Positions 737 through 62,358 are shown, numbered from the stretch's first letter. The stretch: DNA of 62,358 nt from Candidatus Kaiserbacteria bacterium (GCA_028286865.1 JAQBQU010000016.1:1-62358); one strand, 5' to 3'. Translations and numbers: made by a program. Notes: generated from the letters alone by a model not told the origin.

Positions 737-771
737 GAAAGGCCCGGGATGTTCCCGGGCCTTTAACTTTT
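737..771. terminator. bidirectional hairpin terminator between convergent genes
   Basis: GGCCCGGGA-tgt-TCCCGGGCC stem flanked by an A-run and a T-run (TTTAACTTTTT). Confidence 0.7.
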
Positions 772-1853: not shown

Positions 1854-1854
1854 A

Positions 1855-5290: not shown

Positions 5291-5352
5291 TCGCCTGACG
5301 CAGGCGGCCCCAAAAGAAAAAAGGGCCACCCCGTCAGGCGATTTTTCTTTTT
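5291..5352 (+). terminator. long hairpin + T-run, orphan plus-strand terminator
   Basis: TCGCCTGACG ... CGTCAGGCGA stem with an inner GGCCC/GGGCC stem, followed by TTTTTCTTTTT. No annotated plus-strand gene ends here. Confidence 0.45.
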
Positions 5353-5492
5353 CCGGCCTTGTAATATGACCCGCCTGCGTCGTCGAAGTCTGCATTGTCG
5401 CTGTCGTCGTACATCCAGTACGCCTCCATCGCCACTTTGACTTCTTCTAGCATTCGGGCCATCTTCCAAGGCCTTTACAGTACCGAGCGGTA

Positions 5493-23840: not shown

Positions 23841-23928
23841 TCTCTTGCCAAAGTAGATTTTGTATGGTTTGCTCCCTCAAGTTACGGGCTTAATGCCCAT
23901 CACTTTAACTTGATGGAAGGTTCATCAA

Positions 23929-24273
23929 ATGGTCAGAAATGTGATCTGGAGCGGTCTGTTGATCGCGCTGCTTAGCTTCTCAGCGGGCTATATCCCCGTA
24001 TTGCACGTCCAAGGTCTGGATCCGGGCCTTGCGCGCAATGTGTGCGCTTTTGCACTGATGCTGTCCATTGTTTTCATTCTCGTCGAATTCAAAGTGCCAG
24101 ACGTGTTGATCGACGTACTCATTATTGCGGCAGCAGGAGTATGCTGGTATTTGAAAAGTACCAGTTTTGCGTCCCTGATGCCGTCGTGGACTGCAGATGC
24201 TTCCGTACTGACCGCCGTCGGAATCTTATTCGCGGTCTTCGCGATCAAAGACCTCCTTGTCTATCGAAAATAA
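23929..24273 (+). CDS. hypothetical integral membrane protein
   Basis: 114 aa with about 4 predicted TM helices. A GGAAGG SD lies upstream and a terminator downstream. Confidence 0.6.
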   Translation: MVRNVIWSGLLIALLSFSAGYIPVLHVQGLDPGLARNVCAFALMLSIVFILVEFKVPDVLIDVLIIAAAGVCWYLKSTSFASLMPSWTADASVLTAVGILFAVFAIKDLLVYRK

Positions 24274-24298
24274 ATAGCGAACTGCGACCGCAAAAAGC

Positions 24299-24329
24299 AA
24301 AGGCCCGGGATTTCCGGGCCTTTTGATTT
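24299..24329 (+). terminator. rho-independent terminator
   Basis: GGCCCGG-gattt-CCGGGCC stem followed by TTTTGATTT. Confidence 0.65.
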
Positions 24330-24387
24330 GTATACATTATTTATTTTTTGTGCACAGCGTTGATGTTTTGCACGATATACTTATGCG

Positions 24388-25605
24388 ATGAGTCGCTTCG
24401 TCTACACCGCAGAAAAAAATGACGGCGAGGTCTACAAAGGCACCGCAGAGGCAAAAGACCGCTTCGAGCTTTATGGCGTGGTTCGCCGCGAGGGCGGTAA
24501 GATCATCTCGGTCAACGAGCAGTCGGGAAGCAAGTGGAGCATCACGTACTGGAACACCAAGCTCACGACCATCAAGGAATACGACAAGATACTCATGGCG
24601 AGAAACCTCGGCGCCATGATCTCCGCCGGGCTCAGTCTTTCGCGCTCTCTGGCCGTGCTTGAGCGTCAGACGAAGAATCCCCGGCTCGGCGCCACCATCT
24701 CTGAGATCGCGAGCGATGTGCGCCGCGGAGAAACATTGCACGGCGCGATGGCGAAATTCCCCCGCATCTTCAGCAATCTTTTCATTGCGATGCTTCGCGC
24801 CGGCGAAGAAGGGGGAGATCTTCCGGCGTCTTTGCAGGTGACGTCGGACCAGATGGAACGCATGTTCGACCTCAAGAAGAAGATAAAAGGAGCCATGATC
24901 TATCCGTGCATCATCCTGGTGGCGATATTCGGCATCGGTATCGTTATGATGATCGTCGTCGTGCCGACATTGGGCTCTACCTTCAGCGAAATGGGTGCCT
25001 CGCTCCCGTCTTCGACACAATTTGTCATCAATCTCAGTAATTTCCTGGTGCAGTATACGGTGCTCGCTCTGGGCATGATCGTCGGAGTCGTGGTCGGTCT
25101 ATACCTCGCGCTGCGTACCCGTATCGGACAGCGCGGCGTCGACTTCGTGCTGCTGCATCTGCCGGGGATCTCGCCTCTCGTGAAAGAAGTGAATGCGGCG
25201 CGCACTGCGCGCACGATGGCGTCACTGCTCACCTCGGGAGTCGACGTGATAACCGCGCTCGATATCACGCACGAGGTCGTGCAGAATTCATATTTCCAGG
25301 CGATCATCGCCGCCGCCAAGACCGGAGTTGCGCAGGGCCAGCCGCTCTCGACCGAATTCGCGCGTAACGAAAAGATGTACCCGCCCTTTGTGGGCGAAAT
25401 GATGGCGGTCGGTGAAGAGACCGGACAGACCGCAGAAATGCTCAAGCGCTTGGCACTTTTCTACGAAGTCGAAGTGGACCGCAAGACAAAAGATATGTCG
25501 ACCATCATTGAGCCGTTCCTCATGCTCTTCATCGGTGCGGCGGTCGGATTCTTTGCGGTCGCGATGATCACACCGATCTATTCGCTTTCGTCCAACAATT
25601 TCTGA
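24388..25605 (+). CDS. pilC: type IV pilus platform protein (PilC/GspF family)
   Basis: 405 aa with two T2SSF repeats and 3 TM segments. TATACT lies 6 nt before the ATG. Confidence 0.92.
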   Translation: MSRFVYTAEKNDGEVYKGTAEAKDRFELYGVVRREGGKIISVNEQSGSKWSITYWNTKLTTIKEYDKILMARNLGAMISAGLSLSRSLAVLERQTKNPRLGATISEIASDVRRGETLHGAMAKFPRIFSNLFIAMLRAGEEGGDLPASLQVTSDQMERMFDLKKKIKGAMIYPCIILVAIFGIGIVMMIVVVPTLGSTFSEMGASLPSSTQFVINLSNFLVQYTVLALGMIVGVVVGLYLALRTRIGQRGVDFVLLHLPGISPLVKEVNAARTARTMASLLTSGVDVITALDITHEVVQNSYFQAIIAAAKTGVAQGQPLSTEFARNEKMYPPFVGEMMAVGEETGQTAEMLKRLALFYEVEVDRKTKDMSTIIEPFLMLFIGAAVGFFAVAMITPIYSLSSNNF

Positions 25606-25609
25606 CCCT

Positions 25610-27340
25610 ATGTCGCGCAGAACTACTGCACGCGGAGTGACATTGATCGATACGATCGTGGCCACATCGCTCATGCTTGTGGTGTTCCTCGGGATCGCGG
25701 CAGCGTTCAATCTGTCGCTCGATATCGTGAGCAACAACAAGGCGCGCGGAGGCGCTATTGCACTTGCCGATGAGCGGATGGAATACATCCGGAGTCTCAC
25801 GTACGCGCAGGTGGGGACCGTCGGCGGGATCCCTTCGGGGGTCCTCGCGCAGAGCGAATCACTTTCGCTCAATGGTGTGTCATATGTCCGACGCACCCTG
25901 GTCTTATACGGCGATGATGCGAGCGACGGGACGGGTGTCGCGGATGGCAACAGCATTACGGCGGATTACAAGCTCGTGAAAGTGGATGTGACGTGGAATT
26001 CGCGCACGGGAGCGCGTCATATTGCGCTCGTCACGAGATTCTCACCGGCACCCGGAGTGGAATCGGCGGTCGCGGGTGGAACACTTACCATCAATGTCAT
26101 CGATTCAGCATCTTCGCCGCTTTTTAATGCGCAGCTGCGCATTGTGAACGCCTCGACCACACCGGCGAGCGCCGCGATCGACCTCACGACCTATACCAAT
26201 GCAAGCGGGACCGCTACATTCATCGGTGCTACATCCACGGGCGCGTACCAGGTGACCGTTACGAAATCCGGATATTCGACCGCGCAGACCTACTCGCTCA
26301 CGGCGGTAAATACGAGTCCGAATCCCGGACACCTGACGGTCTCCACGAATCAGACAACGACCGGCACCTTTGCTATCGACCTCCTGGCGCAGAAGACCGT
26401 GCAGACGCTCAATCAGATCGTGCCCGGTACGTGGACCGACCCGTTCTCTGACGCGGCGAAAATAGCGACGAGTACCAACGTGAGCGTCTCCGGCGGCAAG
26501 GCATCGCTCATTGATACGACAAGTACGGGGGAAGTGCGCTCTATTGCGGTCGCACCCAGCGCACTTATGACCTGGGGGACGCTCACCGTCACCGATACAA
26601 AACCCGTCGGGACGCTGACCCGCTATCGCGTATACGATGCAGCGGGCGCACTCATTCCGGACTCCCAGCTTTCGGGTAACAGCGCCGGATTCACAAGTAC
26701 CAGCATCGATCTTTCGGGGGTCTCGACAAGCACGTATCCGTCGCTTGTCTTCGACAGTGTGCTGACCGGCGCCGCGTCTTCGACCCCGTCGATCGATGTA
26801 TGGAGCGTGGGCTATACGTACGGCGGCGACCCGCTTCCTAACGTCGCATTCACGATGCGCGGCGCCAAAACGACCGGCAGCGGACCGTCGGGAACCGTCT
26901 ATAAATACAACAGCGCACTCTCGAGCGGTTCGACCGGAGTGCTGGTTTTGCCGGGCCTCGAATGGGACACGTACCTCATAACCGTCGCCGGTACCTCGAC
27001 GGGCTACGACATTGCTTCCGCGTGCAGCCCGCAGCCGGAAACGCTCGCGGCGGGAGCGAGTGCGACGACCAGGCTCTATTTCGCGACCCATACGGTGAAT
27101 TCAATTCTCATCGACGTGCACGTAGCATCTTCGGGGGTTCTCTTGCCGGGGGCGACGGTACATTTGTACAAAACCGGATACTCGGCGACCTCAACCGCCG
27201 ATTCCTGCGGCCAGGCGTTCTTCTCCGGGCTCACGAGCGGCACCTATTCGCTCGACGTTTCGAAATCGGGCTACACAACATATACGTCCCCCGCGGCCAA
27301 CGTTGCGGGGACATCGCGTCTCTCGGTCTCACTCAATTAA
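25610..27340 (+). CDS. giant prepilin-type N-terminal domain protein with CarboxypepD_reg-like beta-sandwich repeats
   Basis: 576 aa. The N-terminus RGVTLIDTIVATSLMLVVFLGI is a class III signal-like sequence (G/VTLID). Two segments resemble carboxypeptidase regulatory-like domains (VTVTKSGYS, LDVSKSGYT). Confidence 0.8.
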   Translation: MSRRTTARGVTLIDTIVATSLMLVVFLGIAAAFNLSLDIVSNNKARGGAIALADERMEYIRSLTYAQVGTVGGIPSGVLAQSESLSLNGVSYVRRTLVLYGDDASDGTGVADGNSITADYKLVKVDVTWNSRTGARHIALVTRFSPAPGVESAVAGGTLTINVIDSASSPLFNAQLRIVNASTTPASAAIDLTTYTNASGTATFIGATSTGAYQVTVTKSGYSTAQTYSLTAVNTSPNPGHLTVSTNQTTTGTFAIDLLAQKTVQTLNQIVPGTWTDPFSDAAKIATSTNVSVSGGKASLIDTTSTGEVRSIAVAPSALMTWGTLTVTDTKPVGTLTRYRVYDAAGALIPDSQLSGNSAGFTSTSIDLSGVSTSTYPSLVFDSVLTGAASSTPSIDVWSVGYTYGGDPLPNVAFTMRGAKTTGSGPSGTVYKYNSALSSGSTGVLVLPGLEWDTYLITVAGTSTGYDIASACSPQPETLAAGASATTRLYFATHTVNSILIDVHVASSGVLLPGATVHLYKTGYSATSTADSCGQAFFSGLTSGTYSLDVSKSGYTTYTSPAANVAGTSRLSVSLN

Positions 27341-48530: not shown

Positions 48531-50195
48531 ATGTTCAAGCGAATCGCAGTTACAGGTCTCGGTCTAGCACTCCTTGCTACGCCATTCGTTGCCTCAGCGG
48601 ACCTTCTCTCCGACTTGCAGGCAAAACTGGTCGCATTACAGTCACAGCTCACTTCAGTGAATGCGAGTGCGGGCACCAACACGTCAGCGGCATGTCCGTC
48701 GCTGAATGCAGTGCTCTCCGTCGGTGCACGTGGCTCGGATGTTACGACCCTCCAGACGTTCCTCGTCGCACAGGGCTTCCTTTCATCTGATTCAGCGACC
48801 GGCTACTTTGGCCTACTCACGCAAGGTGCCGTGCAGCGATTTCAGGCGCAAGCAGGTATCGTGTCGTCCGGTAATCCGTTTACCACAGGATATGGCAGTG
48901 TCGGCCGTCTCACGAGAGAGGCGATCAGGAACATGTGTAAGGCTATTTCGACAAATCCTCCGGCCGCGCCGAATGTGACCTTTAGCGCTTCGCCTGCATC
49001 GGGCGCTGCACCGCTCAATGTCACCTTCACCGAAAGCGGACTCCCGGCAGGTACGTACCAAGTGAATTTCGGTGACAGCGCAAACGGCACGATCACCGTT
49101 CCGTCAATTATGTGTATTACGACTCCATGTAATCCCGGACCGCAATCCACTTCACACACCTACTCTCTCGCCGGCACCTATACCGTCACACTCAGCGGCA
49201 CTCCGTGTGCTTCGGGCGCAATGTGTGCGCAGGTAATTCGCACACTCGGCACCGCGACCATCACGGTCAGTGGCGCTGTTTCTCAAGCGGACACAACATT
49301 CACCGCCTCACCGACGTCGGGCACGGCACCACTCACCGTTTCATTTAGTGCAAGCGGCCCATCCGGAACCAACTTCAGCAGTATCAGTTATGGCGACGGC
49401 ACGAGCGGAAGTCTCAATGCGGCGCCCGTATGTGCAAGCTGCAATGCGGCCTCAAGTGCAAGTCATGTCTATGCTACAGCCGGCACGTATACGGTGACGC
49501 TCGGCTACATGCCGCCATGTGCTGTCGGTATGGCCTGCGCACAAGTCGTACAGACCAAGACCGTGACGATCACGGTCAATGCTCCCGCTTCTCAAGCGGA
49601 CACGGTATTCTCCGCCTCGCCGACCTCGGGCACGGCACCATTGAGTGTCGCGTTTAGCGCAACCGGCCCCTCAGGAACCAATTTCAGCAGCATCACCTTC
49701 GGTGATGGCACAAGCGGAAGTCTCAATGCTGCACCGGTCTGCGCGAGCTGCAATGCTTCGTCGGCTGCGAGCCATACTTACACCACCACCGGCACCTACA
49801 CCGCAACGCTCGGATACATGCCACCGTGCCCAAGCGGTATGGCATGTACACAAGTGATGCAGACCAAGACGGTTACAATTACGGTGAGTGGTTCGCAAAA
49901 TCCGACGATCGTAATGCCGACGTGCTCTGAAACATTCTCATCGTCGACTACCGGTACCGGGATCTATTTCACCGATTCTTGGACATCATCGACGGACGTC
50001 ACCTCAATGACACTCACCATCACCCGAGGCGGTCAGGTGGTCGTCGGCCCCGGCCCGTCGGGAGTCAATGGCTCATACCAAACGAAATGGGATGTCGCGG
50101 GTACGTACCAGTACAACAGAAAAATAAATAGCGGCAATGCATATGCCGAATGCAACGCGACCCTTGTCGTACAACAAATGTCGCAGACGCAGTAG
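48531..50195 (+). CDS. secreted PG_binding_1 + three PKD-like module protein
   Basis: 554 aa. It has a signal peptide MFKRIAVTGLGLALLATPFVASA and a peptidoglycan-binding-like repeat (GSDVTTLQTFLVAQGFL...GYFGLLTQGAVQRFQ). Three F(S/T)ASP(A/T)SG(A/T)APL(N/T/S)V(T/S/A)F modules carry conserved Cys pairs. Confidence 0.85.
   Translation: MFKRIAVTGLGLALLATPFVASADLLSDLQAKLVALQSQLTSVNASAGTNTSAACPSLNAVLSVGARGSDVTTLQTFLVAQGFLSSDSATGYFGLLTQGAVQRFQAQAGIVSSGNPFTTGYGSVGRLTREAIRNMCKAISTNPPAAPNVTFSASPASGAAPLNVTFTESGLPAGTYQVNFGDSANGTITVPSIMCITTPCNPGPQSTSHTYSLAGTYTVTLSGTPCASGAMCAQVIRTLGTATITVSGAVSQADTTFTASPTSGTAPLTVSFSASGPSGTNFSSISYGDGTSGSLNAAPVCASCNAASSASHVYATAGTYTVTLGYMPPCAVGMACAQVVQTKTVTITVNAPASQADTVFSASPTSGTAPLSVAFSATGPSGTNFSSITFGDGTSGSLNAAPVCASCNASSAASHTYTTTGTYTATLGYMPPCPSGMACTQVMQTKTVTITVSGSQNPTIVMPTCSETFSSSTTGTGIYFTDSWTSSTDVTSMTLTITRGGQVVVGPGPSGVNGSYQTKWDVAGTYQYNRKINSGNAYAECNATLVVQQMSQTQ
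49281..49898 (+). repeat. 2 x 309-nt (103-aa) in-frame tandem repeat
   Basis: The units start at TCTCAAGCGG, at 49281 and 49590. The translated units are highly similar (SQADT(T/V)F(T/S)ASPTSGTAPL...QTKTVTITV). Confidence 0.85.
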
Positions 50196-50225
50196 CCTTC
50201 AAAAAAATACGATACAATAAACCCT

Positions 50226-53200
50226 ATGCGATATGCATGGGGTTTATTGTTTGCCCTTTTTCTCCTCCCGACTTTTGCCGCGGCGGATACGTGCCCCGCG
50301 CTCTCGTTGGGCTCGCGCGGCGCAAGCGTAACAGCAGTACAAAAGATACTGTACGCTGCGTACGCGAACTTTCCTCTGCCCACGGGCACGTTTGATAGCA
50401 CGACTCAAACGGCGCTCAAGCAGTGGCAAAAGGAACACGGCATTTCACAGACAGGCACTGTCGGTCCTCTCACGGGGGCGGCGATGAAGCTCTGTGTTGC
50501 TGCATCAACGGTCGTTGCAAATCCGGTCCCTACCACTACCGCTGTCAGTGGCACCCGCACCCTCTCCCGAGGGCTCTCGGGTTCTGATGTCGTGGCACTC
50601 CAGCAGTTCCTCATTTCGCAGAACCTCCTTGCGGCGGGGAACGCGACCGGCTTCTTCGGCGCGCTCACCGAAGCGGCCGTGCAATCATTCCAGCGCGCCC
50701 GCAACATCGTCTCTACGGGCAGTCCTGCCACGACCGGATACGGTGCAGTGGGCCCGAAGACACGGGGAGTGATCGCGAACTCTACATCGACCACAACGAT
50801 TACAACGAATCCGACTACCGGTCCTACCACTACCTCCGTCCCCCCGGTGACGACTCCTGTTATTACAACAGTTCAACCTATCATTACCACTGTTCCGGTC
50901 AGCGGCCCTACGGCATCTCTCACCGGAAACGGTGCTTCATCACTGACCGTCAGAGTCGGCGATACCGTGAATTTTGTATGGTCATCCAATAGTGGTGCAT
51001 CCGCTCGTTCTACCTATGCAACTGAAGTTCCGAATGTCTGCGGCGCAAGCGGCAGCGGTCCGTTCCCGTGGGTGGCCAATACGCTCTCGGGAACAATTTC
51101 AAGCGGAGCCATTCCTGCGTGCTGGGCAGGGCACACATCGACCGGCACATACATAGTCACAGACAGCGCAGGGAGGTCCGCCTCTGCGAGCTTTGTTCTA
51201 AAAGTGTTGTCTGCGGACAGTGGCCCCACCGCCACACTTACCGCCAACGGATCGAACTCGCTTGCCGTCCATGTGGGCGACTCGATCAATTATGCGTGGT
51301 CATCGACCGGCGGCACTTCTGCGAGATCCACATACACGACCGAATCGCCCAATGTGTGCGGTCAGACCGGCAGCGGTCCGTTCCCGTGGGTCGTCAATAC
51401 ACTCTCCGGCACGCTCTCAAGTGGCGCGATACCGACATGCTGGGGCGGACACACAGTGACCGAAACGTTCACAGTGACCGACAGTGCGGGGCGCACGGCC
51501 TCTTCGGTGGTTACGGCGAACGTCCTGTCCGCGGGTCCCGTTGCATCAGTGTTCGAAGGCGACAGCATCACCGTGAATAACGACGCGACCTCATGGCCCA
51601 ACAAGCTCATGACGATCAACAGCCGTCTTGGCGGAGGTGTACTGTATAATTTTGCGCAAAATGGTGACAACGCGGCCGCTATGGTCGGCGAGTATACGAC
51701 GGAAGCACATCAGAAAAAACCGGCAGCAGGCGGCGAGGCGTATTTCTTCCTCTTCGCCGGCGGCAACGACATCCTCGGTGACGTAACCGCTGCGGCTACG
51801 TATGCGAATTTGAAAACGTTGTGGGCCAATGCGCGGGCCGACGGATACAGGGTCGTGGCTTTCACGATCATGAATCGTACGACATTTACCGGCAGCAAGG
51901 CGACGCAGTGGGCAGCGCTCAACAACCTTATCTTGAGCGATCGTACGCTGTACGATTATGTCGTCCGCGCGGACCTTGCGTTGCCGGATCCGACCAGTAG
52001 CACCAATTTCGCCGACGGCACCCATCCGACCCCGGCCGGCTATGCGGTGATAGCCAATGCGGTCAATAACGCACTTACCGCCTCCGTCGACCTCAAAGGC
52101 AACGGTTCTGACGGCCCCGTGAATGCAAAAGTAGGCGACAGTGTGACCTGGTCATGGACATCTCAAGGGGTCACCTCGTGTGCACAAAGTTATACGGGCA
52201 CGAGTACGGGAGCGCCCGCAGATTGGGGCACATCCGGAACGAAGGTCATTGGTCCGTACCCATCATCCGCCGCGGGCTCCTACACGATCCTCATGGCCTG
52301 TACGACATCGAGCGGAGGTACCGTATCGGACACCGTGCAGCTCAACGTGGCTGCGGCCACGAACGCATCTTGTACGGTGGGCGGCGTCACGATCGCGAGC
52401 GGCGCTTCACAAACATTCTACTCATCGCAGAGCGTCGCATCGGGCTCCTCATGTTCCGCTGTGTCTCAAACCCGCACCTGCACCAACGGCGTACTTTCCG
52501 GTAGTGCTTCATATCAATACGCATCGTGTTCCGCCGCAACTGCTACTGCCGGATGGGATAACGTAAAGACCGCGGTCGGTAACTGCTCCGCTGCGACCGG
52601 CAACGGCTCGACGGACGACACGGCGGCGATGCAATGTCACTTGAACTACATGTACAACACCTACGGCGGCGGCATCGTGTACGTCCCGCCGGGGACATAC
52701 CGCGTCTCCGGCGGCGGCCTTACGATCCAGGGGGGTACTGAACTCATCGGGGAAGGCAAAACGGTCTCTGTCATCAAAACGACCTCGGATTCGCCCGTTC
52801 TCACCTTCGACACCACATGCCGAAGCTATCCGGCTGCGAGTAAGTTGTCCATATATGGATACGAAAATGCCGCCGCGACCTCGGACACGGTCACGATCGG
52901 TTTCAACTGCCCGGTAAATCTCCGTGATGACGATATCCGCTACGGACACAACGGTCTCACCAACAGAGGAGTCGACGGGTTTATCGCGGACACATCAATA
53001 TTCGGCTTCAACGCCTCGGTCGTGTCCTATGGCGCAAATTGGTACCTACGCGACACCTTCGCTTCCGTCGGCGGGTACAGCTCCGCCTACGGTTTTTATC
53101 AGGGCGTATCGCAAGGCGGACTTCAGGAAAATCATCTGACACAAACGACGATCACCGGCAATCAGACATACGGCGTCGTCATTGCCGATGCAGATACCAT

Positions 53201-54272
53201 CAATTCGATCACCTCGTTCTCCGAATCTGTTATTGACACACCCGTCTTGGTCACCAGGGCTCGATGGACGAGTTTCACTAATTCTCGCGTCGCCTCGATA
53301 AGCGGTAATTCCGGGGTCATAACGAACACCGGTTCATACTCCGTAACCCCGATACCGACGGGTACTGCGACACCGCTGGTGCCGGCCGGAGGTTCGACCG
53401 CGGGCGCATGGGTGAATGTGAAAGATCCGGTAGGGAGTTGTGCTGCCGCGCTCGGCAACGGCACCGATGAGACGGCGGCGATCCAGTGTCATCTCACATA
53501 TATGTACCAAACGTACGGGAGCGGTGTCGTCTTTTTCCCGCCCGGCACGTACCGCGTATCGGGCGGCGGTGTCTTCGTACAAGGAGGTGTGCAGATCATC
53601 GGTTCCGGAGGGAACGTCACCTCATTCGTGACCTCTGTAGACTCGACGGTCATCACGTTCGATTCTGCTTCTTGCAATCGTCCTGCAATGGCGAGCGTAT
53701 TCGTCCTTGGCTACGAGAATGAATCTGCTCAAAATCCCGTGGTCACGGTCGGAGAGAACTGCGCGGCAACGATCCGCGACGCCTACATCTGGATGGGCGG
53801 ATATGCGCTCTACAACAAAGGCGTCGGCGGGGTCGTGGAGAACTCATTTATCAACGGATACACGGCGGGCGTCGCATCACTCGGGTCGAACTGGTACGTG
53901 CGCGACAAACTCGACAGTTCGGCATCCCACACCACATACTCGTTCTTGCAGGGATCCCCCGCCCCTGGCGTATCGAGCGCCACCAACTATCTCCTGATGC
54001 CTGATTTTTCCGGAAACTTTTCCTACAGCGTTGCTATCATCGACCCCACGCATACGGCGGTCACCGTGATAGACGGAGGGGTGACCTCTTCTCCGTTCCT
54101 CATAAACGGAGGGGCATCTACAAGCATCATCAACAGCGAACTCGGCGGCGCATTCACGCTCAACAACGGCGGCAACGTGTCGTTCATCGGCTCGTACGGC
54201 TTCTCGCCGTTGAATATCGTCGCCAATGGCAGCAATGTGACCGGCAATACCAACCACAACATTTCGTTCTAG
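50226..54272 (+). CDS. giant secreted multidomain protein: 2x PG_binding_1, 2x Ig-like repeat, SGNH/GDSL hydrolase, 4-Cys module, 2x pectate-lyase-3-like beta-helix
   Basis: 1348 aa with a signal peptide and two PG-binding repeats. GDSIT...GGNDI...DGTHPTPAGY is the SGNH block. Two DDTAAMQCHLNYMYNTYGGGIVYVPPGTYRVSGG-type beta-helix caps are present. TACAAT lies 7 nt before the ATG. Confidence 0.85.
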   Translation: MRYAWGLLFALFLLPTFAAADTCPALSLGSRGASVTAVQKILYAAYANFPLPTGTFDSTTQTALKQWQKEHGISQTGTVGPLTGAAMKLCVAASTVVANPVPTTTAVSGTRTLSRGLSGSDVVALQQFLISQNLLAAGNATGFFGALTEAAVQSFQRARNIVSTGSPATTGYGAVGPKTRGVIANSTSTTTITTNPTTGPTTTSVPPVTTPVITTVQPIITTVPVSGPTASLTGNGASSLTVRVGDTVNFVWSSNSGASARSTYATEVPNVCGASGSGPFPWVANTLSGTISSGAIPACWAGHTSTGTYIVTDSAGRSASASFVLKVLSADSGPTATLTANGSNSLAVHVGDSINYAWSSTGGTSARSTYTTESPNVCGQTGSGPFPWVVNTLSGTLSSGAIPTCWGGHTVTETFTVTDSAGRTASSVVTANVLSAGPVASVFEGDSITVNNDATSWPNKLMTINSRLGGGVLYNFAQNGDNAAAMVGEYTTEAHQKKPAAGGEAYFFLFAGGNDILGDVTAAATYANLKTLWANARADGYRVVAFTIMNRTTFTGSKATQWAALNNLILSDRTLYDYVVRADLALPDPTSSTNFADGTHPTPAGYAVIANAVNNALTASVDLKGNGSDGPVNAKVGDSVTWSWTSQGVTSCAQSYTGTSTGAPADWGTSGTKVIGPYPSSAAGSYTILMACTTSSGGTVSDTVQLNVAAATNASCTVGGVTIASGASQTFYSSQSVASGSSCSAVSQTRTCTNGVLSGSASYQYASCSAATATAGWDNVKTAVGNCSAATGNGSTDDTAAMQCHLNYMYNTYGGGIVYVPPGTYRVSGGGLTIQGGTELIGEGKTVSVIKTTSDSPVLTFDTTCRSYPAASKLSIYGYENAAATSDTVTIGFNCPVNLRDDDIRYGHNGLTNRGVDGFIADTSIFGFNASVVSYGANWYLRDTFASVGGYSSAYGFYQGVSQGGLQENHLTQTTITGNQTYGVVIADADTINSITSFSESVIDTPVLVTRARWTSFTNSRVASISGNSGVITNTGSYSVTPIPTGTATPLVPAGGSTAGAWVNVKDPVGSCAAALGNGTDETAAIQCHLTYMYQTYGSGVVFFPPGTYRVSGGGVFVQGGVQIIGSGGNVTSFVTSVDSTVITFDSASCNRPAMASVFVLGYENESAQNPVVTVGENCAATIRDAYIWMGGYALYNKGVGGVVENSFINGYTAGVASLGSNWYVRDKLDSSASHTTYSFLQGSPAPGVSSATNYLLMPDFSGNFSYSVAIIDPTHTAVTVIDGGVTSSPFLINGGASTSIINSELGGAFTLNNGGNVSFIGSYGFSPLNIVANGSNVTGNTNHNISF
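50904..51539 (+). repeat. 2 x 318-nt (106-aa) in-frame tandem repeat
   Basis: The units start at GPTASLTGNG (50904) and GPTATLTANG (51222). Both contain ...ARSTY.TE.PNVCG..GSGPFPWV.NTLSGT.SSGAIP.CW.GHT... Confidence 0.85.
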
Positions 54273-54801: not shown

Positions 54802-55284
54802 ATGACACATCGACAAGAACTATTGCTTGGCATCGTCGCGATACTTATTCTCATCGCCGCGATCTACCTCTTCGGTCACCCGTCCCAAAAAATAAGGGCC
54901 AGATTCAATACAAAGAGCATCGATCTCCCGGTGCCGACGGGCCCGAGCGCCACAGAGGCAGCGCAATTGAAAGCGAGTACCGGATTTCAGGAGCTTGTTT
55001 CGTATACCGATGGGGGATTTGCCCCCGGGAAGCTTTCGGTCAAGAAAGGCGACACGGTCCGATTCACGAATAGTTCAAAAGCAGATCTCTGGGTCGCCGC
55101 GACCGGGGCATCGGGCTCGGTATATCCCGGAAAGACCGTCGATGAATGCGGGCAAAGTGCCTTCGATTCGTGCCGCGTCATCGCGCCCGGAGGATTCTGG
55201 GAATTCACTTTCGACACTGCAGGCACGTGGGGATATCAGAATAACCGTGATACTGCCATGACAGGCATGATCGTTATCCAATGA
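54802..55284 (+). CDS. membrane-anchored cupredoxin-like domain protein
   Basis: 160 aa. A TM helix is followed by GKLSVKKGDTVRFTNSSKADLWVAA...WEFTFDTAGTWGYQN, a cupredoxin/EfeO-N-like pattern. I saw no obvious Cu ligand set. TAGAAT lies 6 nt before the ATG. Confidence 0.65.
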   Translation: MTHRQELLLGIVAILILIAAIYLFGHPSQKIRARFNTKSIDLPVPTGPSATEAAQLKASTGFQELVSYTDGGFAPGKLSVKKGDTVRFTNSSKADLWVAATGASGSVYPGKTVDECGQSAFDSCRVIAPGGFWEFTFDTAGTWGYQNNRDTAMTGMIVIQ

Positions 55285-57122
55285 AAAAGACTCTACTTGT
55301 CCTCCTGCTTCTGATCGTCCCGCAGTTCGTATTCGCAGGCGCTGCTTACTACACAACGCCCGGATCGTATGGTTTTACCGTGCCTGCATACGGTACGCTT
55401 ACCGTTCAAGTATGGGGCGGAGGAGGAGGCGGGTCGTATTGGAATGACGCGCAATCAGGAACGTATTCGGCATTCGATTCAGTCGTCGGATACGGAGGTG
55501 TCGGTCCCCACGGTGTTGTCGGATATATCTCATGTATGCCATGTGCGCAGTTTGAGCCGGGAGGGCCGGGCGGCGGCGCATCAGGTGGTGACATAAACAT
55601 TGCTGGAGACAACGGTCAGGATGGGCCCGCCAGTAGTGGCGGCGCGAGTCCGTATGGCGGCAGCGGTGGCGCTTTTGGAGGCAGAGGTGCGCAGGGCGCT
55701 CCGGGAGGCGCTCCGGGAGGCGGAGGAAGCGGTGCGTCGCCCGCGCAAGGTGGATTTGTTATATATGGTGGCGGTGGCGGTGGCGGTGGATTTTCCCAAA
55801 AGACCTATTCATCCGGAGCACTTCCTCCTGCCGTTACGATCGTAGTTGGTAGCGGTGGAGCCGGTAGCCCAACCTATTATGGCGATCCTACTAGAGGTGG
55901 TGATGGAGCCTCCGGCGCCGTATATGTATATTGGACCGACCTGCCCCCCGCCTCCTGCGTCGTCTCCGTATCTCCGAATCCCGCTTCCTATTCATCGAGT
56001 GGAACGGCGACGCTCTCGTGGTCTTCGAGCAATGCAGATTCGTGGACCTATATAAATAATGTGGGATATCTCACCGGACCCGGTAGCTCATTCCAAGTCG
56101 CCCGTACCGCTTCCACCGATTACTCCTGCTACGCACAAGGTTCAGGCGGCTCCGACGGCTGGCACGCGTATACCTTCACCGTGACCCCTCCGCAACCCAC
56201 CCTCACCATCTCTGCCGATTCCACTTCGATCAACACCGGACAAACGACTGTCATTCACTCGACATATGCAGCCGGGGCGGGGGATTCGATGCAAGACACT
56301 GCATTCAATGAAGTACCGCCCGGAAGCGCGGAAGTGAATCTGCGAGCGGTCGGTGTCGCATACGGCACGTCCCCCGATACCCAGTACAACTACACGTTCA
56401 CACCATCGACTGCCGGAACATATGTTTTCAAACCGTATGCGATCACGTCGGCGTATAATTCATGGAATACATACGGACAGAGTGTTTCGGTCACCGTTAC
56501 TGCAAATGCTCCCTGCACACTCAACGGCGTCACTATGCAAAGCGGCGAATCTCACACCTTCTACAGCTCCCAAACGTCTCCGACCGGCCAGGTCTGCTCA
56601 GCCATATCTCAAACAAGAACGTGCACCAATGGCACACTCTCCGGAAGCTCCTCATATCAATACAGCTCCTGCACGTGCGCACCGCTGTACTCCTGCTCGG
56701 GCAACAATGTGACATACACCAACGGAAGCTGCTCCACCTCCACCGTCGCATCCTGCGTATCTCCGCAGTACTGCTCTCCCGGGACTCCTACATGTGTGAC
56801 GCCGCCACCAACCTTCACGAGCGGTACCTCCACATACAACGGTGTCGTCTTCAACTCCACCGGACATATCATCGCAAAGCCCCAGCTCCTCTCTCCCGGT
56901 GCTACCGCTCGCATCTACTGGAACATCTCAAACGTATCCTCATGCACCACGACCGGAAGCAACGGCGACTCATGGACCGGCGCATCCTCCGGCTCGGCAG
57001 GGAAGGCCACCGCCGCTATCACCCAGCAGACCACGTTCACGCTGCGCTGTACCGGACTCGATGCGTCACATATCAATGAGAGTGCGACGGTGAATGTTAT
57101 TCCGGTGTTTCAGGAGCAGTGA
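55281..57122 (+). CDS. secreted glycine-rich-domain protein with Ig-like modules and a 4-Cys module
   Basis: 613 aa with signal peptide MKKTLLVLLLLIVPQFVFA. A ~190-aa Gly-rich block (VWGGGGGGS...GGGGGGGGF...GGDGASGAVYVYW) is followed by Ig-like segments. ATGA overlap with the upstream gene. Confidence 0.8.
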   Translation: MKKTLLVLLLLIVPQFVFAGAAYYTTPGSYGFTVPAYGTLTVQVWGGGGGGSYWNDAQSGTYSAFDSVVGYGGVGPHGVVGYISCMPCAQFEPGGPGGGASGGDINIAGDNGQDGPASSGGASPYGGSGGAFGGRGAQGAPGGAPGGGGSGASPAQGGFVIYGGGGGGGGFSQKTYSSGALPPAVTIVVGSGGAGSPTYYGDPTRGGDGASGAVYVYWTDLPPASCVVSVSPNPASYSSSGTATLSWSSSNADSWTYINNVGYLTGPGSSFQVARTASTDYSCYAQGSGGSDGWHAYTFTVTPPQPTLTISADSTSINTGQTTVIHSTYAAGAGDSMQDTAFNEVPPGSAEVNLRAVGVAYGTSPDTQYNYTFTPSTAGTYVFKPYAITSAYNSWNTYGQSVSVTVTANAPCTLNGVTMQSGESHTFYSSQTSPTGQVCSAISQTRTCTNGTLSGSSSYQYSSCTCAPLYSCSGNNVTYTNGSCSTSTVASCVSPQYCSPGTPTCVTPPPTFTSGTSTYNGVVFNSTGHIIAKPQLLSPGATARIYWNISNVSSCTTTGSNGDSWTGASSGSAGKATAAITQQTTFTLRCTGLDASHINESATVNVIPVFQEQ

Positions 57123-57186
57123 TGGTGAGTGAGAGATTTCCCCACATCATCCCTGACCTTTCTCGCGGGCATGTCACAATAGGGAC

Positions 57187-58167
57187 GTGAATACCTCTCG
57201 CTCACTCGTTCTCTCGGTCACACTTCTTGCCGGGCTGCTACTGAGTGGCTCCGCCTCCGCCTGGACCGGCCCCACCGCCTCACCGCCGAGTGCCAACGTG
57301 TCAGCTCCCCTCAACGTCAGCACCGCCGACCAGCTCAAGCACGGATGGATCGGACTCGATTCGCTCTCGATCTTCGATCATATGATCATCTCCGGTGCCG
57401 TGAACAGTCCGAACACCGTCCGCTACCTCAACTTCGGATCTACCTGGGACGCAGCAGGATATGGTATCCGTGACAATGCGGGTACTTTGGAATTTAAAAA
57501 CTCCGGCGGCTCATGGACATCGCTGCAGTCGACCATCTACAACTACTGCGCGGACGAGGGATGTGGTGGTAGCACTCCGGACTGGACGAATATCACCGGC
57601 AAGCCCTTCAATTGGGCAGGACAGACCGGCCAGCCGTCATGGCTCTGGGGATCCAATGACGGAGTTGATTATTATGTGTGGAACCCAAGCAATTTCAATG
57701 TTAACTACGCGAACTCGGCAGGTGCTGTCCCGTGGTCGGGCGTCTCGGGCAAACCCTTCAACTGGAATGGCCAAAGCGGCCAGCCGTCATGGCTCTGGGG
57801 ATCCAATGACGGCGCCAATTACTATGTCTGGAATCCGAGCAATTTCAACGTGGCTTCTGTAGGAGGCTATGGTGCCGAAGGATTGCTCAAGTACGACACA
57901 TGGGGGAGAGGATCAACATACTATGCATCCAATGGTGATTCATATCTTGCGTGGCGAGGACAGTGGCTCTCCACCATTGTGGACAATCTTCCCGGACGGC
58001 TGGGCGGTCAGTTCTGGGTGGGTCAAGTCGAGGGCGGGTACAACGCCTGTCCTTCAGGATCTATCATGGTCGGGACCAATCTGTGGCTCAGCTATTATTT
58101 TGGCGGAGAGCCTGAAATGCATATAACTCCATACACAAACGTATTGTGCCAATGGATCAGCCAATAA
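57187..58167 (+). CDS. secreted fibre-like protein, paralog A
   Basis: 326 aa with GTG start (TGtCACAAT-N6) and a signal peptide ending SASA/WTGPTASPPS. The conserved N-domain is shared with paralog B. There are two 50-aa W..(I/V)(T/S)GKPFNW.GQ.GQPSWLWGSNDG..YYVWNPSNFNV repeats. Confidence 0.8.
   Translation: MNTSRSLVLSVTLLAGLLLSGSASAWTGPTASPPSANVSAPLNVSTADQLKHGWIGLDSLSIFDHMIISGAVNSPNTVRYLNFGSTWDAAGYGIRDNAGTLEFKNSGGSWTSLQSTIYNYCADEGCGGSTPDWTNITGKPFNWAGQTGQPSWLWGSNDGVDYYVWNPSNFNVNYANSAGAVPWSGVSGKPFNWNGQSGQPSWLWGSNDGANYYVWNPSNFNVASVGGYGAEGLLKYDTWGRGSTYYASNGDSYLAWRGQWLSTIVDNLPGRLGGQFWVGQVEGGYNACPSGSIMVGTNLWLSYYFGGEPEMHITPYTNVLCQWISQ
57583..57882 (+). repeat. 2 x 150-nt in-frame tandem repeat inside fibre paralog A
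   Basis: A 35-nt identical core GGCCAGCCGTCATGGCTCTGGGGATCCAATGACGG lies at 57628-57662 and 57778-57812. Confidence 0.85.
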
Positions 58168-58168
58168 T

Positions 58169-58735
58169 ATGAAAAGCGAACCAATTATTCAGATATTGAT
58201 TGCTGCCGTTGTCCTACTCGCGCTCGGCGAAGCCTATCTCGTGCACGACAATGCCCAATTGCGACACGTCGCTTCGGTAGCCGGCATCGGGCAATTTCCG
58301 ACAGGAGTCACTACGAGCCCTATAACTGGCTCGAGCACTGTGGCGGGCCCGATCGCTCCCTCGAATATATTGGCGACAATTGTAGGTACCATTACAGCCA
58401 ACAACGATTCGCAGTTTATTCTCAGCGCCGGTATTGTCACCAAAACCATATCAATAGACTCCTCCACGACTATCGTAATGCAAGGGAAACTGAAAGATTC
58501 CGCTCAATATGCCGATGATATGGAAGCCTTTCGTGCGTCATCGATGAAATTAGCAGAGGATCTGTCGAAGAACAGAGCTGCGCTTCAGTCTTTGATCGCA
58601 CCATCATCCCATGTCGAGACGAGTATTCATGCGTCGCAGATCACGGCCGGGAGTATCGCTTCCGTCTATTACACGATCGTCGGCGGCGAAGCGCATGCAT
58701 TCAAAATAATTGTGATGTCTGCCGGCACTAACTGA
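58169..58735 (+). CDS. small membrane-anchored partner protein, paralog A
   Basis: 188 aa with an N-terminal TM helix (IIQILIAAVVLLALGEAYL). The ATG lies 1 nt after the fibre gene's TAA (CAATAATATG junction). Confidence 0.7.
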   Translation: MKSEPIIQILIAAVVLLALGEAYLVHDNAQLRHVASVAGIGQFPTGVTTSPITGSSTVAGPIAPSNILATIVGTITANNDSQFILSAGIVTKTISIDSSTTIVMQGKLKDSAQYADDMEAFRASSMKLAEDLSKNRAALQSLIAPSSHVETSIHASQITAGSIASVYYTIVGGEAHAFKIIVMSAGTN

Positions 58736-58817
58736 GCTGCTTGAGATGGAAATACCGCGGTCACTCCTTCTCCCCATGAGAGCGAATTTGTCAGAAAACG
58801 AGATGTATAATTGCCTA

Positions 58818-59981
58818 GTGAAGAAAGAATTATCTAAGAAGATATTTTCACTCCTCATCGCTGGCTTAATCGGGAGCGTTGCGACCTCCGCCTCCGCCTG
58901 GACCGGCCCCACCGCCTCACCGCCAAGCGGCAACGTCGCGGCCCCGCTGAACGTCAGTACCGCCGACCAGCTCAAGCACGGATGGATCGGACTCGACTCG
59001 ATGTCCATCCTCAATCACCTCATCATCTCCGGCGCAGCAAACACTCCCAACACCGTCCGCTACCTCAATTTCGGTGCGACCTGGGACGCTGCGGGATACG
59101 GTATCCGCGACAATGCCGGCACCCTTGAGTTCAAGAACTCGGGCGGTACGTGGGCGAGCATTCAGAGTACGGTGAATACGCTGGTGGGTAATGGCGGGCA
59201 GTGGACCACCTCCGGATCAAACATTTATTACAACACCGGGAATGTGGGGGTGGGGACGGCGAGTCCGACGTACGCACTGACGGTGACCAGCGGTAACAAA
59301 GCAATCTCCGTGGGAGAAGGGACGGGTAGTGATGCAGATGGTCGGCTGGTCATGGGGTGGACCTCGGCTTCAGGAGCAACACCCGCGTGGGCCAATATCA
59401 GCGCATATCAAGGCGGCTATAGAAAGCTGCAGATCGAAGCGAGTCCGCTGGTTCTTAATAGCAATGGCAGTAACGTGGGCATCGGAACTATGAATCCTGC
59501 AGGAAGATTGGAATCAGACTCAAACGGTGCGGGAGTGTGGGCCGGCATGTTCAACTACGGCGCGGGAGCACCTTCCGGCGCCTATGGAATTTGGACCTAT
59601 GGCACCTCATACGCACTCTATGCGCAGGGCCCAGTCGTAACCACCGGCAATGTGAGTGTAGGCAGTGCCGTTCTTGGAACCAATGGCGATCTCTACATGC
59701 CGTGGAAGGGTCAATGGCTCTCCACGGTCTTGAGTAATCTCCCGGGCAGGCTCGGGGGTCAGTTCTGGGTCGCAGCGTATGCATGGAACGGTATTAGCGA
59801 TCCGAATTGGACGGGGCGTCAGGGATACCTAGACATGTGTCCGTCAGGATCTATTGTGGTGGGGACGTATCAGGAAAATACACAAATTCCTGTCTCGGAT
59901 CCAAATGACGGATACACGAGAGGTCACGCGGCTGTCGACGCCCAGTATAATCAGGTTCTCTGTCAATGGATCACTCAATAA
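58818..59981 (+). CDS. secreted fibre-like protein, paralog B
   Basis: 387 aa from GTG 58818 (TATAAT 58806-58811 + N6) with signal peptide (M)KKELSKKIFSLLIAGLIGSVATSASA/WTGPTASPPS. The N-terminal ~95 aa are near-identical to paralog A and the C-terminal half is different. The track's longer ORF starts at 58746. Confidence 0.78.
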   Translation: MKKELSKKIFSLLIAGLIGSVATSASAWTGPTASPPSGNVAAPLNVSTADQLKHGWIGLDSMSILNHLIISGAANTPNTVRYLNFGATWDAAGYGIRDNAGTLEFKNSGGTWASIQSTVNTLVGNGGQWTTSGSNIYYNTGNVGVGTASPTYALTVTSGNKAISVGEGTGSDADGRLVMGWTSASGATPAWANISAYQGGYRKLQIEASPLVLNSNGSNVGIGTMNPAGRLESDSNGAGVWAGMFNYGAGAPSGAYGIWTYGTSYALYAQGPVVTTGNVSVGSAVLGTNGDLYMPWKGQWLSTVLSNLPGRLGGQFWVAAYAWNGISDPNWTGRQGYLDMCPSGSIVVGTYQENTQIPVSDPNDGYTRGHAAVDAQYNQVLCQWITQ

Positions 59982-59982
59982 T

Positions 59983-60525
59983 ATGCGCTCTCGTACCAAC
60001 ATTCTCATAAGCTTTCTCATCGCAGCAGTCATTGTGCTCGCGATCGCGCAGGTATATACCATCCGCAAACTTTCAAATAACGCAGCGCAAAGTGTCATGC
60101 AGCCAGCACATCCGGGAGGAGTGGCTACACAAGCGGTATCAGCTGTACCTCCGTCGACGATCATGATGCCGATATCAGGTACCGTTATGTCCGCCGACTC
60201 GTCCCATATCGTAATAGGGAATGCGTCTTCGACCAGAGCGTTATCGATCGATCCATCGACCGTTATTGTGCAATTCGGCGCGCTCAAGGATTCTCAACAG
60301 CAGGCCGCTGATATGGAGGCATTCAGGCTTTCTTCAAATGAGCTTGCCAAAGATCCCGAGAAAAATAAATTATTGCTCCAAACGCTTGTGGCGCCGTCAC
60401 CGTTTAAGGAGACAAAGATCGCCGCTTCCGATATAAAGCCGGGTGCAGAGATCGTTGCGTATACCTTTATTCAAGGCGGGTCGGTATATGCCGTTCGAGT
60501 GAATGTATTGTCGGTCGCTCAATGA
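59983..60525 (+). CDS. small membrane-anchored partner protein, paralog B
   Basis: 180 aa from MRSRTNILISFLIAAVIVLAIAQVY. It has the same CAATAATATG junction as cassette A and C-terminal similarity (DMEAFR.SS..LA.D..KN...LQ.L.APS). Confidence 0.7.
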   Translation: MRSRTNILISFLIAAVIVLAIAQVYTIRKLSNNAAQSVMQPAHPGGVATQAVSAVPPSTIMMPISGTVMSADSSHIVIGNASSTRALSIDPSTVIVQFGALKDSQQQAADMEAFRLSSNELAKDPEKNKLLLQTLVAPSPFKETKIAASDIKPGAEIVAYTFIQGGSVYAVRVNVLSVAQ

Positions 60526-60536
60526 GTAGCGCCCAA

Positions 60537-60574
60537 AAGAAAAGCTCCGGCTTGTGGGCCGGAGCTTTTCTTTT
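60537..60574. terminator. bidirectional terminator (AGCTCCGGC...GCCGGAGCT)
   Basis: 9-bp GC-rich stem with A/T-run flanks between the island and rplT. Confidence 0.8.
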
Positions 60575-60579
60575 GATAT

Positions 60580-61818: not shown

Positions 61819-62358
61819 CTATTTGGTAGCTGAGGACGGACTCAGAAAGTGTATTGCCCAGGTCAATGCTGCCGCGAGGTCCGAAAGGAGCTTCATGACC
61901 CCGTTGGTGGATGGCGAACTGTACGTAGAAGGGCCGGTATAGCTTAGGTCGGTCGAGGTAAAGGTCTGCTGCGAGGTGAGCGGCTGGATAGACGCGATGG
62001 TGCCCGGATTTATCGAGGTCGATGCGCTCGCCGCAGAGATGCCTGTAATGTCCGAGGTATTGCTGTTAAGGACGACCGAGATCGGAGTGGCGGTCGCGGA
62101 GTTGCTCGCCGTGAATGAGACCGGATTGGCAAATGCGTTCAGGAGTTCCTCGGTCGTACTGGTATGCGTCGTAGACGTCGATGGATTGGTCACGAGGGTC
62201 GATGTGGCAGGCGTGGTTGCGATATTGGCGCAACTGTTGCCGTTGCAGCCGTTGGTGCATGTCTGGTACACCTGAGTGGTGCACGAGGTCGTCTGGTAGT
62301 ACATGACGTTGTTGGTGCAGGAGAATTGCGGGGAACAAATACCGCCGAGCGCGGTGGT
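61819..62358 (-). CDS. secreted Thr/Ser-rich protein, 5'-truncated by the window edge
   Basis: The frame stays open upstream of the first Met to the window end (TTALGGICSPQFSCTNNV-MYYQTTSCTTQVYQTCTNGCNGNSC...). The Cys-rich segment resembles the island's 4-Cys module. Confidence 0.6.
   Translation of the reverse strand, partial: TTALGGICSPQFSCTNNVMYYQTTSCTTQVYQTCTNGCNGNSCANIATTPATSTLVTNPSTSTTHTSTTEELLNAFANPVSFTASNSATATPISVVLNSNTSDITGISAASASTSINPGTIASIQPLTSQQTFTSTDLSYTGPSTYSSPSTNGVMKLLSDLAAALTWAIHFLSPSSATK

Follow-up and report, generated by a model that had tools for sequence, protein, structure and literature searches.

Paired fibre and helper genes in Candidatus Kaiserbacteria: a small predicted membrane protein that accompanies the tip, and not the conserved N-terminus, of mosaic fibre-like proteins

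The stretch examined here, 62,358 nucleotides (nt) of Candidatus Kaiserbacteria DNA (GCA_028286865.1, JAQBQU010000016.1:1-62358; hereafter the window, 62 kb), carries two neighbouring gene cassettes, A and B, in each of which a gene for a fibre-like protein with a predicted signal peptide (A1 and B1) is followed by a small gene for a putative membrane protein (A2 and B2), here referred to as the helper. The question raised by this locus is what the fibres are and to which part of them the helper belongs. None of the four proteins matched any Pfam, NCBIfam or PHROG model. A preliminary description, made from the sequence alone, had read the cassettes as a conserved N-terminus with a swapped C-terminus and a dedicated downstream partner, after the manner of phage receptor-binding fibres and their assembly chaperones. 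We found that the helper accompanies one type of fibre tip, GGQFW...CPxGS...C(Q/R)xI, and not the conserved N-terminal domain (N-domain).

A homologue of the helper was detected directly downstream of every assessable fibre gene with this tip family, at 13 distinct loci (Table 1), and the stop and start codons were usually 1-3 nt apart or overlapping, a coupling kept in most of the 8 loci inspected. More distant helpers were identified in L029, together with an ICYK-type tip. On the other hand, about 55 N-domain genes without this tip, including seven with S74/coiled-coil tails and the gene of P0014, had no helper. Thus, the dedicated downstream partner of the preliminary description is a coupled companion in 13 loci, but its tie is to the tip rather than to the N-terminus. 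The same was seen when sequence identities were compared among 11 fibre-helper pairs: helper identity followed tip identity closely (Spearman 0.74; Mantel r 0.77, p 2e-4), it did not follow N-domain identity by rank (Spearman 0.11), although the Mantel test gave a weaker yet significant link (r 0.40, p 8e-4), and N-domain and tip identities were uncoupled from each other (Spearman -0.11). Since helper identity follows the tip, tip and helper form one evolutionary unit that has been recombined onto different N-terminal parts.

Table 1. Features of the two cassettes and of related loci. Positions in the window count from its first nucleotide, and all open reading frames (ORFs) of cassettes A and B lie on the + strand; aa, amino acids; for rows marked X-type module, the positions are those of the whole predicted secreted protein that carries the C-terminal module of X.
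Sequence	Feature	Position	Strand	Remarks
Window	-10-like hexamer CACAAT	57175-57180	+	6 nt between hexamer end and A1 GTG; from sequence
Window	A1, fibre A	57187-58167	+	326 aa, GTG start
Window	A1 signal peptide	57187-57261	+	aa 1-25
Window	A1 conserved N-domain	57262-57540	+	aa 26-118
Window	A1 two 50-aa Trp-rich phage-fibre repeats	about 57571-57870	+	
Window	A1 Cys tip domain	57928-58164	+	aa 248-326
Window	A2, helper A	58169-58735	+	188 aa
Window	TATAAT hexamer	58806-58811	+	6 nt between hexamer end and B1 GTG; from sequence
Window	B1, fibre B	58818-59981	+	387 aa counted from GTG
Window	B1 signal peptide		+	aa 1-27
Window	B1 N-domain	58899-59177	+	aa 28-120
Window	B1 beta-helix-type stalk	about 59178-59678	+	two NVG(V/I)GTxxP capping-loop motifs
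Window	B1 Cys tip domain	59679-59978	+	aa 288-387
Window	B2, helper B	59983-60525	+	180 aa; paralogue of helper A
Window	Intrinsic terminator hairpin	60534-60575	+	19-bp stem; closes the unit and faces the convergent rplT-rpmI-infC
Window	Protein X, predicted secreted	55281-57122	+	613 aa; signal peptide, Gly-rich N-part, Cys-rich + Ig-like C-terminal module
Window	Fibres A1, B1 with tip			helpers A2, B2
L001	Fibre P0007 with tip			helper 187 aa
L002	Fibre P0002 with tip			helper partial, contig end
L003 (Bradyrhizobium)	Fibre P0009 with tip			helper 187 aa
	Fibre P0003 with tip			helper P0123
L010 (Kaiserbacteria)	Fibre of 688 aa with tip			helper present
L065	Fibre with CQWIN tip			helper present
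L006, L066	Fibres with CRQILH tip			helper present; collagen stalk shown for L066
L068, L070	Fibres with CR(A/T)IYYL tip			helper present
L002	X-type module	549-2309		
L065	X-type module	1796-3106		
L066	X-type module	4685-5632		
L068	X-type module	2529-2948		
L069	X-type module	4431-5360		
L070	X-type module	1439-2959		

The four ORFs, arranged as two co-directional pairs, were found as they had been described, and so was the fibre-helper junction, which reads CAATAATATG (TAA-T-ATG) in both cassettes and lies in the common context TG(C/T)CAATGGATCA(G/C)(C/T)CAATAATATG. The predicted Sec cleavage site of the fibres is ASA|W. A longer ORF, from 58746, is possible for B1; however, a normal signal peptide, MKKELSKKIFSLLIAGLIGSVATSASA|W, is obtained only with the GTG start.

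In the protein alignment A1 and B1 showed 42% identity (E 2e-76). Their N-domains are 87% identical in amino acids. In DNA they agree at 83-84% of 261-268 nt and match exactly in stretches of 39 and 38 nt, which bears out the near-identity claimed for the first ~95 residues; the last 75 residues, within the tip, are 50% identical, in keeping with the shared C-terminal frame that had been noticed. Between these ends, A1 has two 50-aa repeats, as claimed, with a 150-nt unit (109 nt at 83% nt identity, 150 nt apart), and B1 has the Gly/Asn/Thr-rich middle region that had been reported, with two NVG(V/I)GTxxP motifs. A DNA-level alignment of the two cassettes, which the preliminary description had proposed, detected likeness in three parts only, namely the N-domain, part of the C-terminal region (71-82% identity) and the junction, and not in the stalks. 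The part exchanged between A1 and B1 is the stalk, flanked by two conserved ends; for this pair, therefore, the "swapped C-terminus" was a misnomer, as the tip is common and the stalk differs. The partners A2 and B2, of the lengths given earlier and each with a predicted transmembrane anchor as had been said, are homologous (39% identity, E 1e-34). By the Nei-Gojobori method, synonymous divergence (dS) was about 1.0 and nonsynonymous divergence (dN) 0.11 in the N-domain, while dS was saturated in the tip and the helpers. This substantial or saturated synonymous divergence indicates that the duplication is old, and the low dN of the N-domain relative to its dS indicates that it has been kept mainly by purifying selection, with gene conversion limited at most.

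The stalks of A1 and B1 are of two kinds, and by sequence they are related both to tail fibres of phages and to the beta-helix found in a group of Bdellovibrio fibres. A1, which lacks the NVGIGTxxP motif, carries instead a Trp-rich phage-type repeat that shares 69-72% identity with a tail-fibre segment of Ochrobactrum phage vB_OspM_OC; with the tail fibre of Sinorhizobium phage PBC5 its identity is 42%. When the family profile was compared with PDB, it matched Bd2133 of Bdellovibrio (8OND, E 3.8e-7) and 8OL4 (E 1.6e-3), the latter deposited as "cell wall surface anchor family protein"; both matches run through the repeat tsGsniYyntGNVGIGTxxPxxkLdV, which is present twice in B1. The B1 sequence alone had no match in PDB. 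The view that these are phage-fibre-type proteins was thus upheld by matches of their modules to vB_OspM_OC, PBC5, proteins of viral contigs and 8OND. In the AlphaFold2 model of the A1 monomer the beta-rich N-terminal (residues 60-125) and C-terminal (243-326) parts were confident and the stalk was of low confidence, a pattern to be expected of an obligate trimer and in itself proof of nothing.

Comparison with relatives showed where the fibres diverge. B1 is colinear with the Kaiserbacteria protein P0008, whose N-domain is near-identical, up to ...QWLSTVL, after which the tips are unrelated, and A1 is colinear with P0005 to residue 195, followed by a different C-terminal region of roughly 220 aa. 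P0003 corresponds to B1 minus most of the stalk, and P0002 is an A1 orthologue with a single repeat. P0009, which Bradyrhizobium sp. 200 encodes on its complete chromosome, combines the first N-domain half and a beta-helix stalk with an A1-type repeat and tip, and has 79% nt identity to A1 over 203 nt. The abrupt distal divergence among colinear relatives indicates that C-terminal and stalk variants on one scaffold exist in nature; such variants, for which a search of relatives had been suggested, were found in P0008 versus B1, in P0005 versus A1 and in others.

As for the origin of this diversity, no inversion repeats were present in the window beyond chance-level inverted repeats and the terminator, and no template repeat of the kind used by diversity-generating retroelements (DGRs) was found, the direct repeats being paralogous segments; recombinases and reverse transcriptases were not searched for exhaustively. 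Programmed variation by a shufflon or a DGR was rejected, as the cassettes are co-directional and have neither inversion sites nor a template repeat. Thus, the diversity is evolutionary, arising from recombination and mosaicism, and the "modular switching" of the preliminary description found no sign of a programmed kind. Among sequencing runs, the locus was met in one soil metagenome only, as contigs, which break at the repeats. A minor contig from soil metagenome data (depth 2.8 versus about 24) had 6 listed differing sites in the A1 repeat, at 57679-57827, and another soil contig fused 57149 to 57244, leaving out 94 nt. These variant contigs may stem from other strains or from paralogues carried by other members of the community.

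To place the N-domain, A1 was searched against 5.8 billion proteins, which gave at least 506 matching proteins, mostly through the N-terminal ~100 residues alone and mostly from Patescibacteria. The top 120 matches have a signal peptide ending in A|W followed by the conserved N-domain, in which W26, P29, N37, P41, N43, Q49, K51 and GYG.RDN.G.LEFKNSGG.W are near-invariant. Beyond it, the proteins continue with Peptidase_S74 and coiled coils, collagen triplets, Gly_rich_2, a CTHRC1_C-like region, small Cys knobs or the GGQFW...CPxGS...C(Q/R)WI tip of A1 and B1, so that the conserved N-terminal scaffold with diverse distal parts, first proposed from two copies, now extends over hundreds of relatives. 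In a scan of one genome per species, the N-domain was almost wholly confined to Patescibacteria (Kaiserbacteria, Paceibacterota, Yonath-, Moran-, Taylor- and Saccharibacteria), apart from a few Alphaproteobacteria, one metagenome-assembled genome (MAG) of Gammaproteobacteria and one Omnitrophota genome. N-domain genes are often arrayed in tandem, with 2-5 genes; two single Patescibacteria contigs (L023, 433-5224; L035, 1-6379) have four and five of them in a row, each array with differing C-termini, and recall the multi-paralogue repertoire of Bdellovibrio fibres. The second half of the N-domain (YLNFG..GYGIRDNAGTLEFKNSGGSW) was also identified internally in proteins of 500-1780 aa encoded by IMG/VR contigs, and some of these proteins match tail-fibre PHROGs; the first half did not turn up in the viral scans, and when the N-domain alone was compared with GenBank phages by tblastn, nothing matched. 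The literature searched held no description of this Patescibacteria fibre family, and the family is apparently both large and undescribed.

The closest known system is that of the mosaic adhesive trimer (MAT) fibres of Bdellovibrio bacteriovorus, such as Bd2133, Bd1334, Bd2439 and Bd3182, which are described as follows: a signal peptide precedes an N-domain that does not vary and is thought to keep the fibre attached to the predator, the stalk is trimeric and phage-like, and the tips, of S74 or non-S74 type, have been swapped in evolution and bind prey ligands; NVGIGTxxPxxKL is listed in the supplement as their "capping loop" motif (Caulton et al. 2024, PMC10769870). In PDB, MATs are represented by C-terminal fragments only. 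The fibres described here are likewise encoded by the cell, and their layout, on which the likeness is drawn, also has a signal peptide followed by a beta-rich N-domain common to all paralogues. They share the phage-like beta-helix stalk with capping-loop motif in B1 and many relatives, the occurrence of many paralogues, and the division into S74 and non-S74 subfamilies with exchanged tips: as in the Peptidase_S74 (PF13884) endosialidase-type fibres, many N-domain proteins end in PF13884, whereas A1 and B1 lack this domain and are thus of the non-S74 type. In addition, Bdellovibrio lives on other bacteria, as do episymbionts among the Patescibacteria. The differences are that the producer here belongs to another phylum and is presumably a monoderm episymbiont, that the N-domain is ~95 aa rather than ~130 aa and the fibres 280-690 aa rather than about 1000 aa, that the Cys tip is new, and that a separate gene for a predicted membrane-tethered helper is coupled to it, no such partner being described for MATs in the parts of that report consulted.

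For the helper, a word-index search returned nothing beyond the query itself. Its family came to light when a profile was run exhaustively against 1.84 billion cluster representatives, 72 of which matched, nearly all of 170-195 aa. They have in common a hydrophobic helix of ~22 residues, at the centre of which stands E or Q (ILxxAvvxLAxGExY), then a low-complexity linker and a domain with the motif T.IV..GA.KD...DM.AF...S..L..DP.KN..AL..LIAPS..ET. The AlphaFold2 model of A2 (pLDDT 86.9, above 93 in the domain) has a transmembrane helix at aa 5-36 (N-terminus inside) that is joined by a linker (37-65) to a beta-barrel at 66-185, into which two helices are inserted; accordingly, the helper is predicted to be a bitopic membrane protein with an extracytoplasmic barrel. 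This barrel is OB-like, with CusF as its best fold match in PDB (template modelling score 0.71 on the target, with a weak E of about 0.01); the PDB matches were generic OB folds, none of them significant. The beta-barrel model DUF5666 (PF18914) was matched by 12 of 36 aligned members of the helper family (best E 4e-9), which have a similar barrel and differ from DUF5666 proteins in a conserved helical insert (DMxAF...DPxKN...LIAPS) and the N-terminal membrane anchor; A2 and B2 themselves had no Pfam match at E <= 1, and the searched literature held no functional work on DUF5666. Scans of genomes and of IMG/VR with the helper alignment gave no match, a scan of metagenomes gave one locus, and the helper model found no fold match in BFVD at E <= 0.001. 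Phage tail-fibre assembly chaperones include the Tfa proteins of lambda, P2 and Mu, which act on fibre tips, and T4 gp38/gp57A. The cassettes resemble such pairs in gene order, a fibre gene and then a small dedicated gene, in stalk modules homologous to phage fibres, and in a helper specific to the distal end of the fibre. Unlike them, they lie outside any phage or tailocin tail module, with EF-G, PG_binding/PKD proteins, rplT-rpmI-infC and ComEC as neighbours, and the fibre is a predicted Sec substrate with a helper that would be membrane-anchored and extracytoplasmic and that resembles no known chaperone in sequence or fold.

Our preferred reading, to which we give a probability of about one half, is that the two cassettes encode paralogous MAT-like mosaic surface fibres, probably adhesins, each with a membrane-tethered factor that acts in trans in the assembly of the tip. 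The fibre would be exported by Sec and cleaved at ASA|W, and its conserved ~95-aa N-domain would dock it on the surface of the producer. Next would come the exchangeable stalk, a Trp-rich phage-fibre repeat in A and a beta-helix with capping loops in B, and then the small tip domain, whose two conserved cysteines (GGQFW...CPxGS...CQWI) might form a disulphide. The helper, as an outward-facing OB-like protein of DUF5666 type, would meet the emerging tip on the outer side of the membrane and promote its assembly or trimerisation, replacing in trans the S74 intramolecular chaperone that other family members carry in cis; this role is proposed because the helper is strictly paired and co-varies with the tip and is absent from the S74 members examined. 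On this reading, recombination reshuffles N-domain, stalk and tip and also exchanges them with phages and with mobile elements of Alphaproteobacteria. Several points weigh against this reading. The family is known from sequences and predicted models alone; the model of the A1 monomer is only moderate (pLDDT 65.6), with no fold match in PDB by Foldseek; and relatives of the first N-domain half are confined to the N-domain family. Moreover, the helper showed no relation by sequence or fold to known phage tail-fibre chaperones in Pfam, PHROG, BFVD and IMG/VR, so that the "phage-type assembly chaperone" of the preliminary description found no match and the term is used by analogy only, and an OB-like fold, as modelled, says little about function. 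Finally, co-variation of tip and helper with free N-terminal recombination is also a signature of toxin-immunity pairs.

A polymorphic toxin-immunity system, in which the C-terminal domain would be a toxin carried on a fibre and the downstream membrane protein its immunity factor, would indeed account for tandem cassettes with a conserved N-terminus and a small dedicated downstream gene, as well as for tips and partners that co-vary while the N-terminal parts recombine, and one pair lies on a Bradyrhizobium mobile island. However, polymorphic systems have many unrelated types, whereas here all partnered tips belong to one family and all partners to another, and both are homologous between the two cassettes (50% and 39%). 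With about 75-100 aa the tip is small; it is beta-rich and has no toxin-domain match, C-termini elsewhere in the family resemble adhesins or chaperones, and no dedicated secretion system is nearby. Because tips and helpers are single homologous families and neither a toxin domain nor a delivery system was found, we regard this explanation as very unlikely. It is also unlikely, to a lesser degree, that the helper anchors the fibre in the membrane or serves as its receptor, with the tip bound to the OB-like domain, the fibre kept on the cell for good or until its release, and the N-domain as the exposed end. A bitopic protein whose linker is long and flexible and whose barrel, modelled with confidence, is of a binding type, strictly linked to and co-varying with the tip, would suit this role, but most family members (those with S74, with collagen but without this tip, or Gly-rich) have no helper and would need another anchor, and the conserved N-terminus is the proximal end in phage and MAT fibres (PMC10769870).

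A further alternative is that the proteins are purely structural components of the envelope or matrix, for instance a sheath or fibres associated with an S-layer, and take no part in cell recognition. Such components would fit the cluster of large secreted PG_binding_1, PKD and Gly-rich proteins around the genes and the lack of a known ligand; still, extreme distal modular diversity, several paralogues per genome and modules in common with phage receptor-binding fibres typify recognition proteins rather than scaffolds, which makes such a role quite unlikely. A prophage or tailocin tail-fibre remnant without present cellular function, to which the homology of the modules with phage tail fibres might point, is hardly credible: the 62 kb of housekeeping context contain no phage genes, the Sec signal peptides of both fibres are intact, purifying selection acts on the N-domain (dN 0.11 versus dS about 1.0), the same synteny recurs in many genomes, and the viral collections scanned contain neither the helper nor the first N-domain half. 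This reading was rejected. A trimeric autotransporter was rejected as well, A1 and B1 having no such Pfam match (YadA-type heads or anchor); P0008 is named "Hep Hag family" by one source.

The surroundings are chromosomal throughout the window, which encodes PPDK, CCA-adding enzyme, RNase Y, trigger factor, NusA and PilB/PilC, and further TIM, PGK, RecJ, ComEC, EF-G, L20-L35-IF3 and five tRNAs, so the cellular, non-prophage context claimed at the outset holds. The order of ComEC, a metallo-beta-lactamase-fold protein and an M50 peptidase agrees with that in a Kaiserbacteria MAG and points to a Kaiserbacteria-like member of the Patescibacteria as the source. Upstream of cassette A, protein X combines an N-part with a weak Gly_rich_2 match (PF21722, E 0.007, below the cut-off) and a C-terminal module of ~150 aa that ends in IPVFQEQ. 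This module is conserved in 7 loci, with the consensus end (V/I)xP(V/T)FQE(Q/R), and the N-parts vary, being Gly_rich_2-like in the window and made of "GYAWSxTIGW" repeats elsewhere. Of 52 cellular loci, 25 had an ORF matching a hidden Markov model of the module within 5 kb of an N-domain fibre gene, as against none of 16 viral loci, and such ORFs directly flank fibre genes in many loci, with or without a helper. Perhaps X is a third component and a general companion of the fibre family, for which its recurrence beside the fibre genes makes it a candidate.

Several other genes of the window may be mentioned. A small cupredoxin/plastocyanin-like protein (54802-55284, +), below family cut-offs and with an N-terminal hydrophobic segment, has a stop codon overlapping the start of X (ATGA). 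Two large predicted secreted proteins lie at 48531-54272 (+); the first, of 554 aa, has PG_binding_1 and PKD, and the second, of 1348 aa, has PG_binding_1, a GDSL lipase and a pectate-lyase-like region; PG_binding_1/PKD proteins also flank fibre genes in L001 and L066, which looks like a surface-protein island. At 61819-62304 (-), a Ser/Thr-rich ORF of 161 aa with the Cys-rich N-terminal stretch QTTSCTTQVYQTCTNGCNGNSC has no family match and may encode a surface protein. Type IV pilus genes, that other known surface appendage of Patescibacteria, are found about 30 kb from the fibres at 22101-27340 (+), with a PilB-type ATPase and a PilC-type platform followed by a 576-aa CarboxypepD_reg/SpaA-like protein.

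Outside Patescibacteria, a fibre and helper pair is present in the complete Alphaproteobacterial chromosome of Bradyrhizobium sp. 200 (L003; CP064689.1, 8001-9766). Its island, with TraG/TrwB, a relaxase, ParE, DUF3768, an S74 protein of 1130 aa and a low GC content of 0.54-0.57, looks like an integrative conjugative element; DUF3768 also adjoins the fibre-helper pair in L068 and L069. The sequences suggest that the cassette has moved horizontally between phyla.

Regarding expression, the GTG starts of A1 and B1 are preceded by -10-like hexamers and by no Shine-Dalgarno sequence, and a similar -10-like TAnnAT hexamer 6-7 nt before the fibre start, again without a Shine-Dalgarno sequence, was seen in most related loci inspected (L002, L004, L066, L068 and L070). 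A simple promoter scan found no full sigma-70 site. Of the leaderless -10/GTG starts proposed earlier, then, the hexamers and the missing Shine-Dalgarno sequence stand and a full promoter was not found; leaderless mRNAs for A1 and B1 are plausible from these signals but unproven.

The design of cell-borne mosaic fibres is known from MATs, and the tip-helper unit is undescribed. The N-domain, tip, helper and companion modules have no Pfam model (the partial matches to DUF5666 and Gly_rich_2 aside), and defining them would annotate hundreds of "hypothetical" proteins. The tip-helper pair may also serve as a compact model for extracytoplasmic fibre assembly. To our knowledge, host recognition and attachment in episymbiotic Patescibacteria are largely unknown beyond type IV pili, and this fibre family, with a constant base, many phage-like stalks and tips and several copies per genome, offers concrete candidates for recognition. 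It is possible, as a tentative proposal, that Patescibacteria and some Alphaproteobacterial mobile elements carry a large repertoire of phage-fibre-derived mosaic adhesins that set host-cell attachment, MAT-like and independent of Bdellovibrio, with a new membrane-tethered trans-acting chaperone of DUF5666 type, co-evolving with the Cys tip, and a secreted companion, marked by PVFQEQ, on which the shared N-domain could dock. This would extend the principle of the cell-borne phage fibre from the predator Bdellovibrio to a second bacteria-dependent lifestyle.

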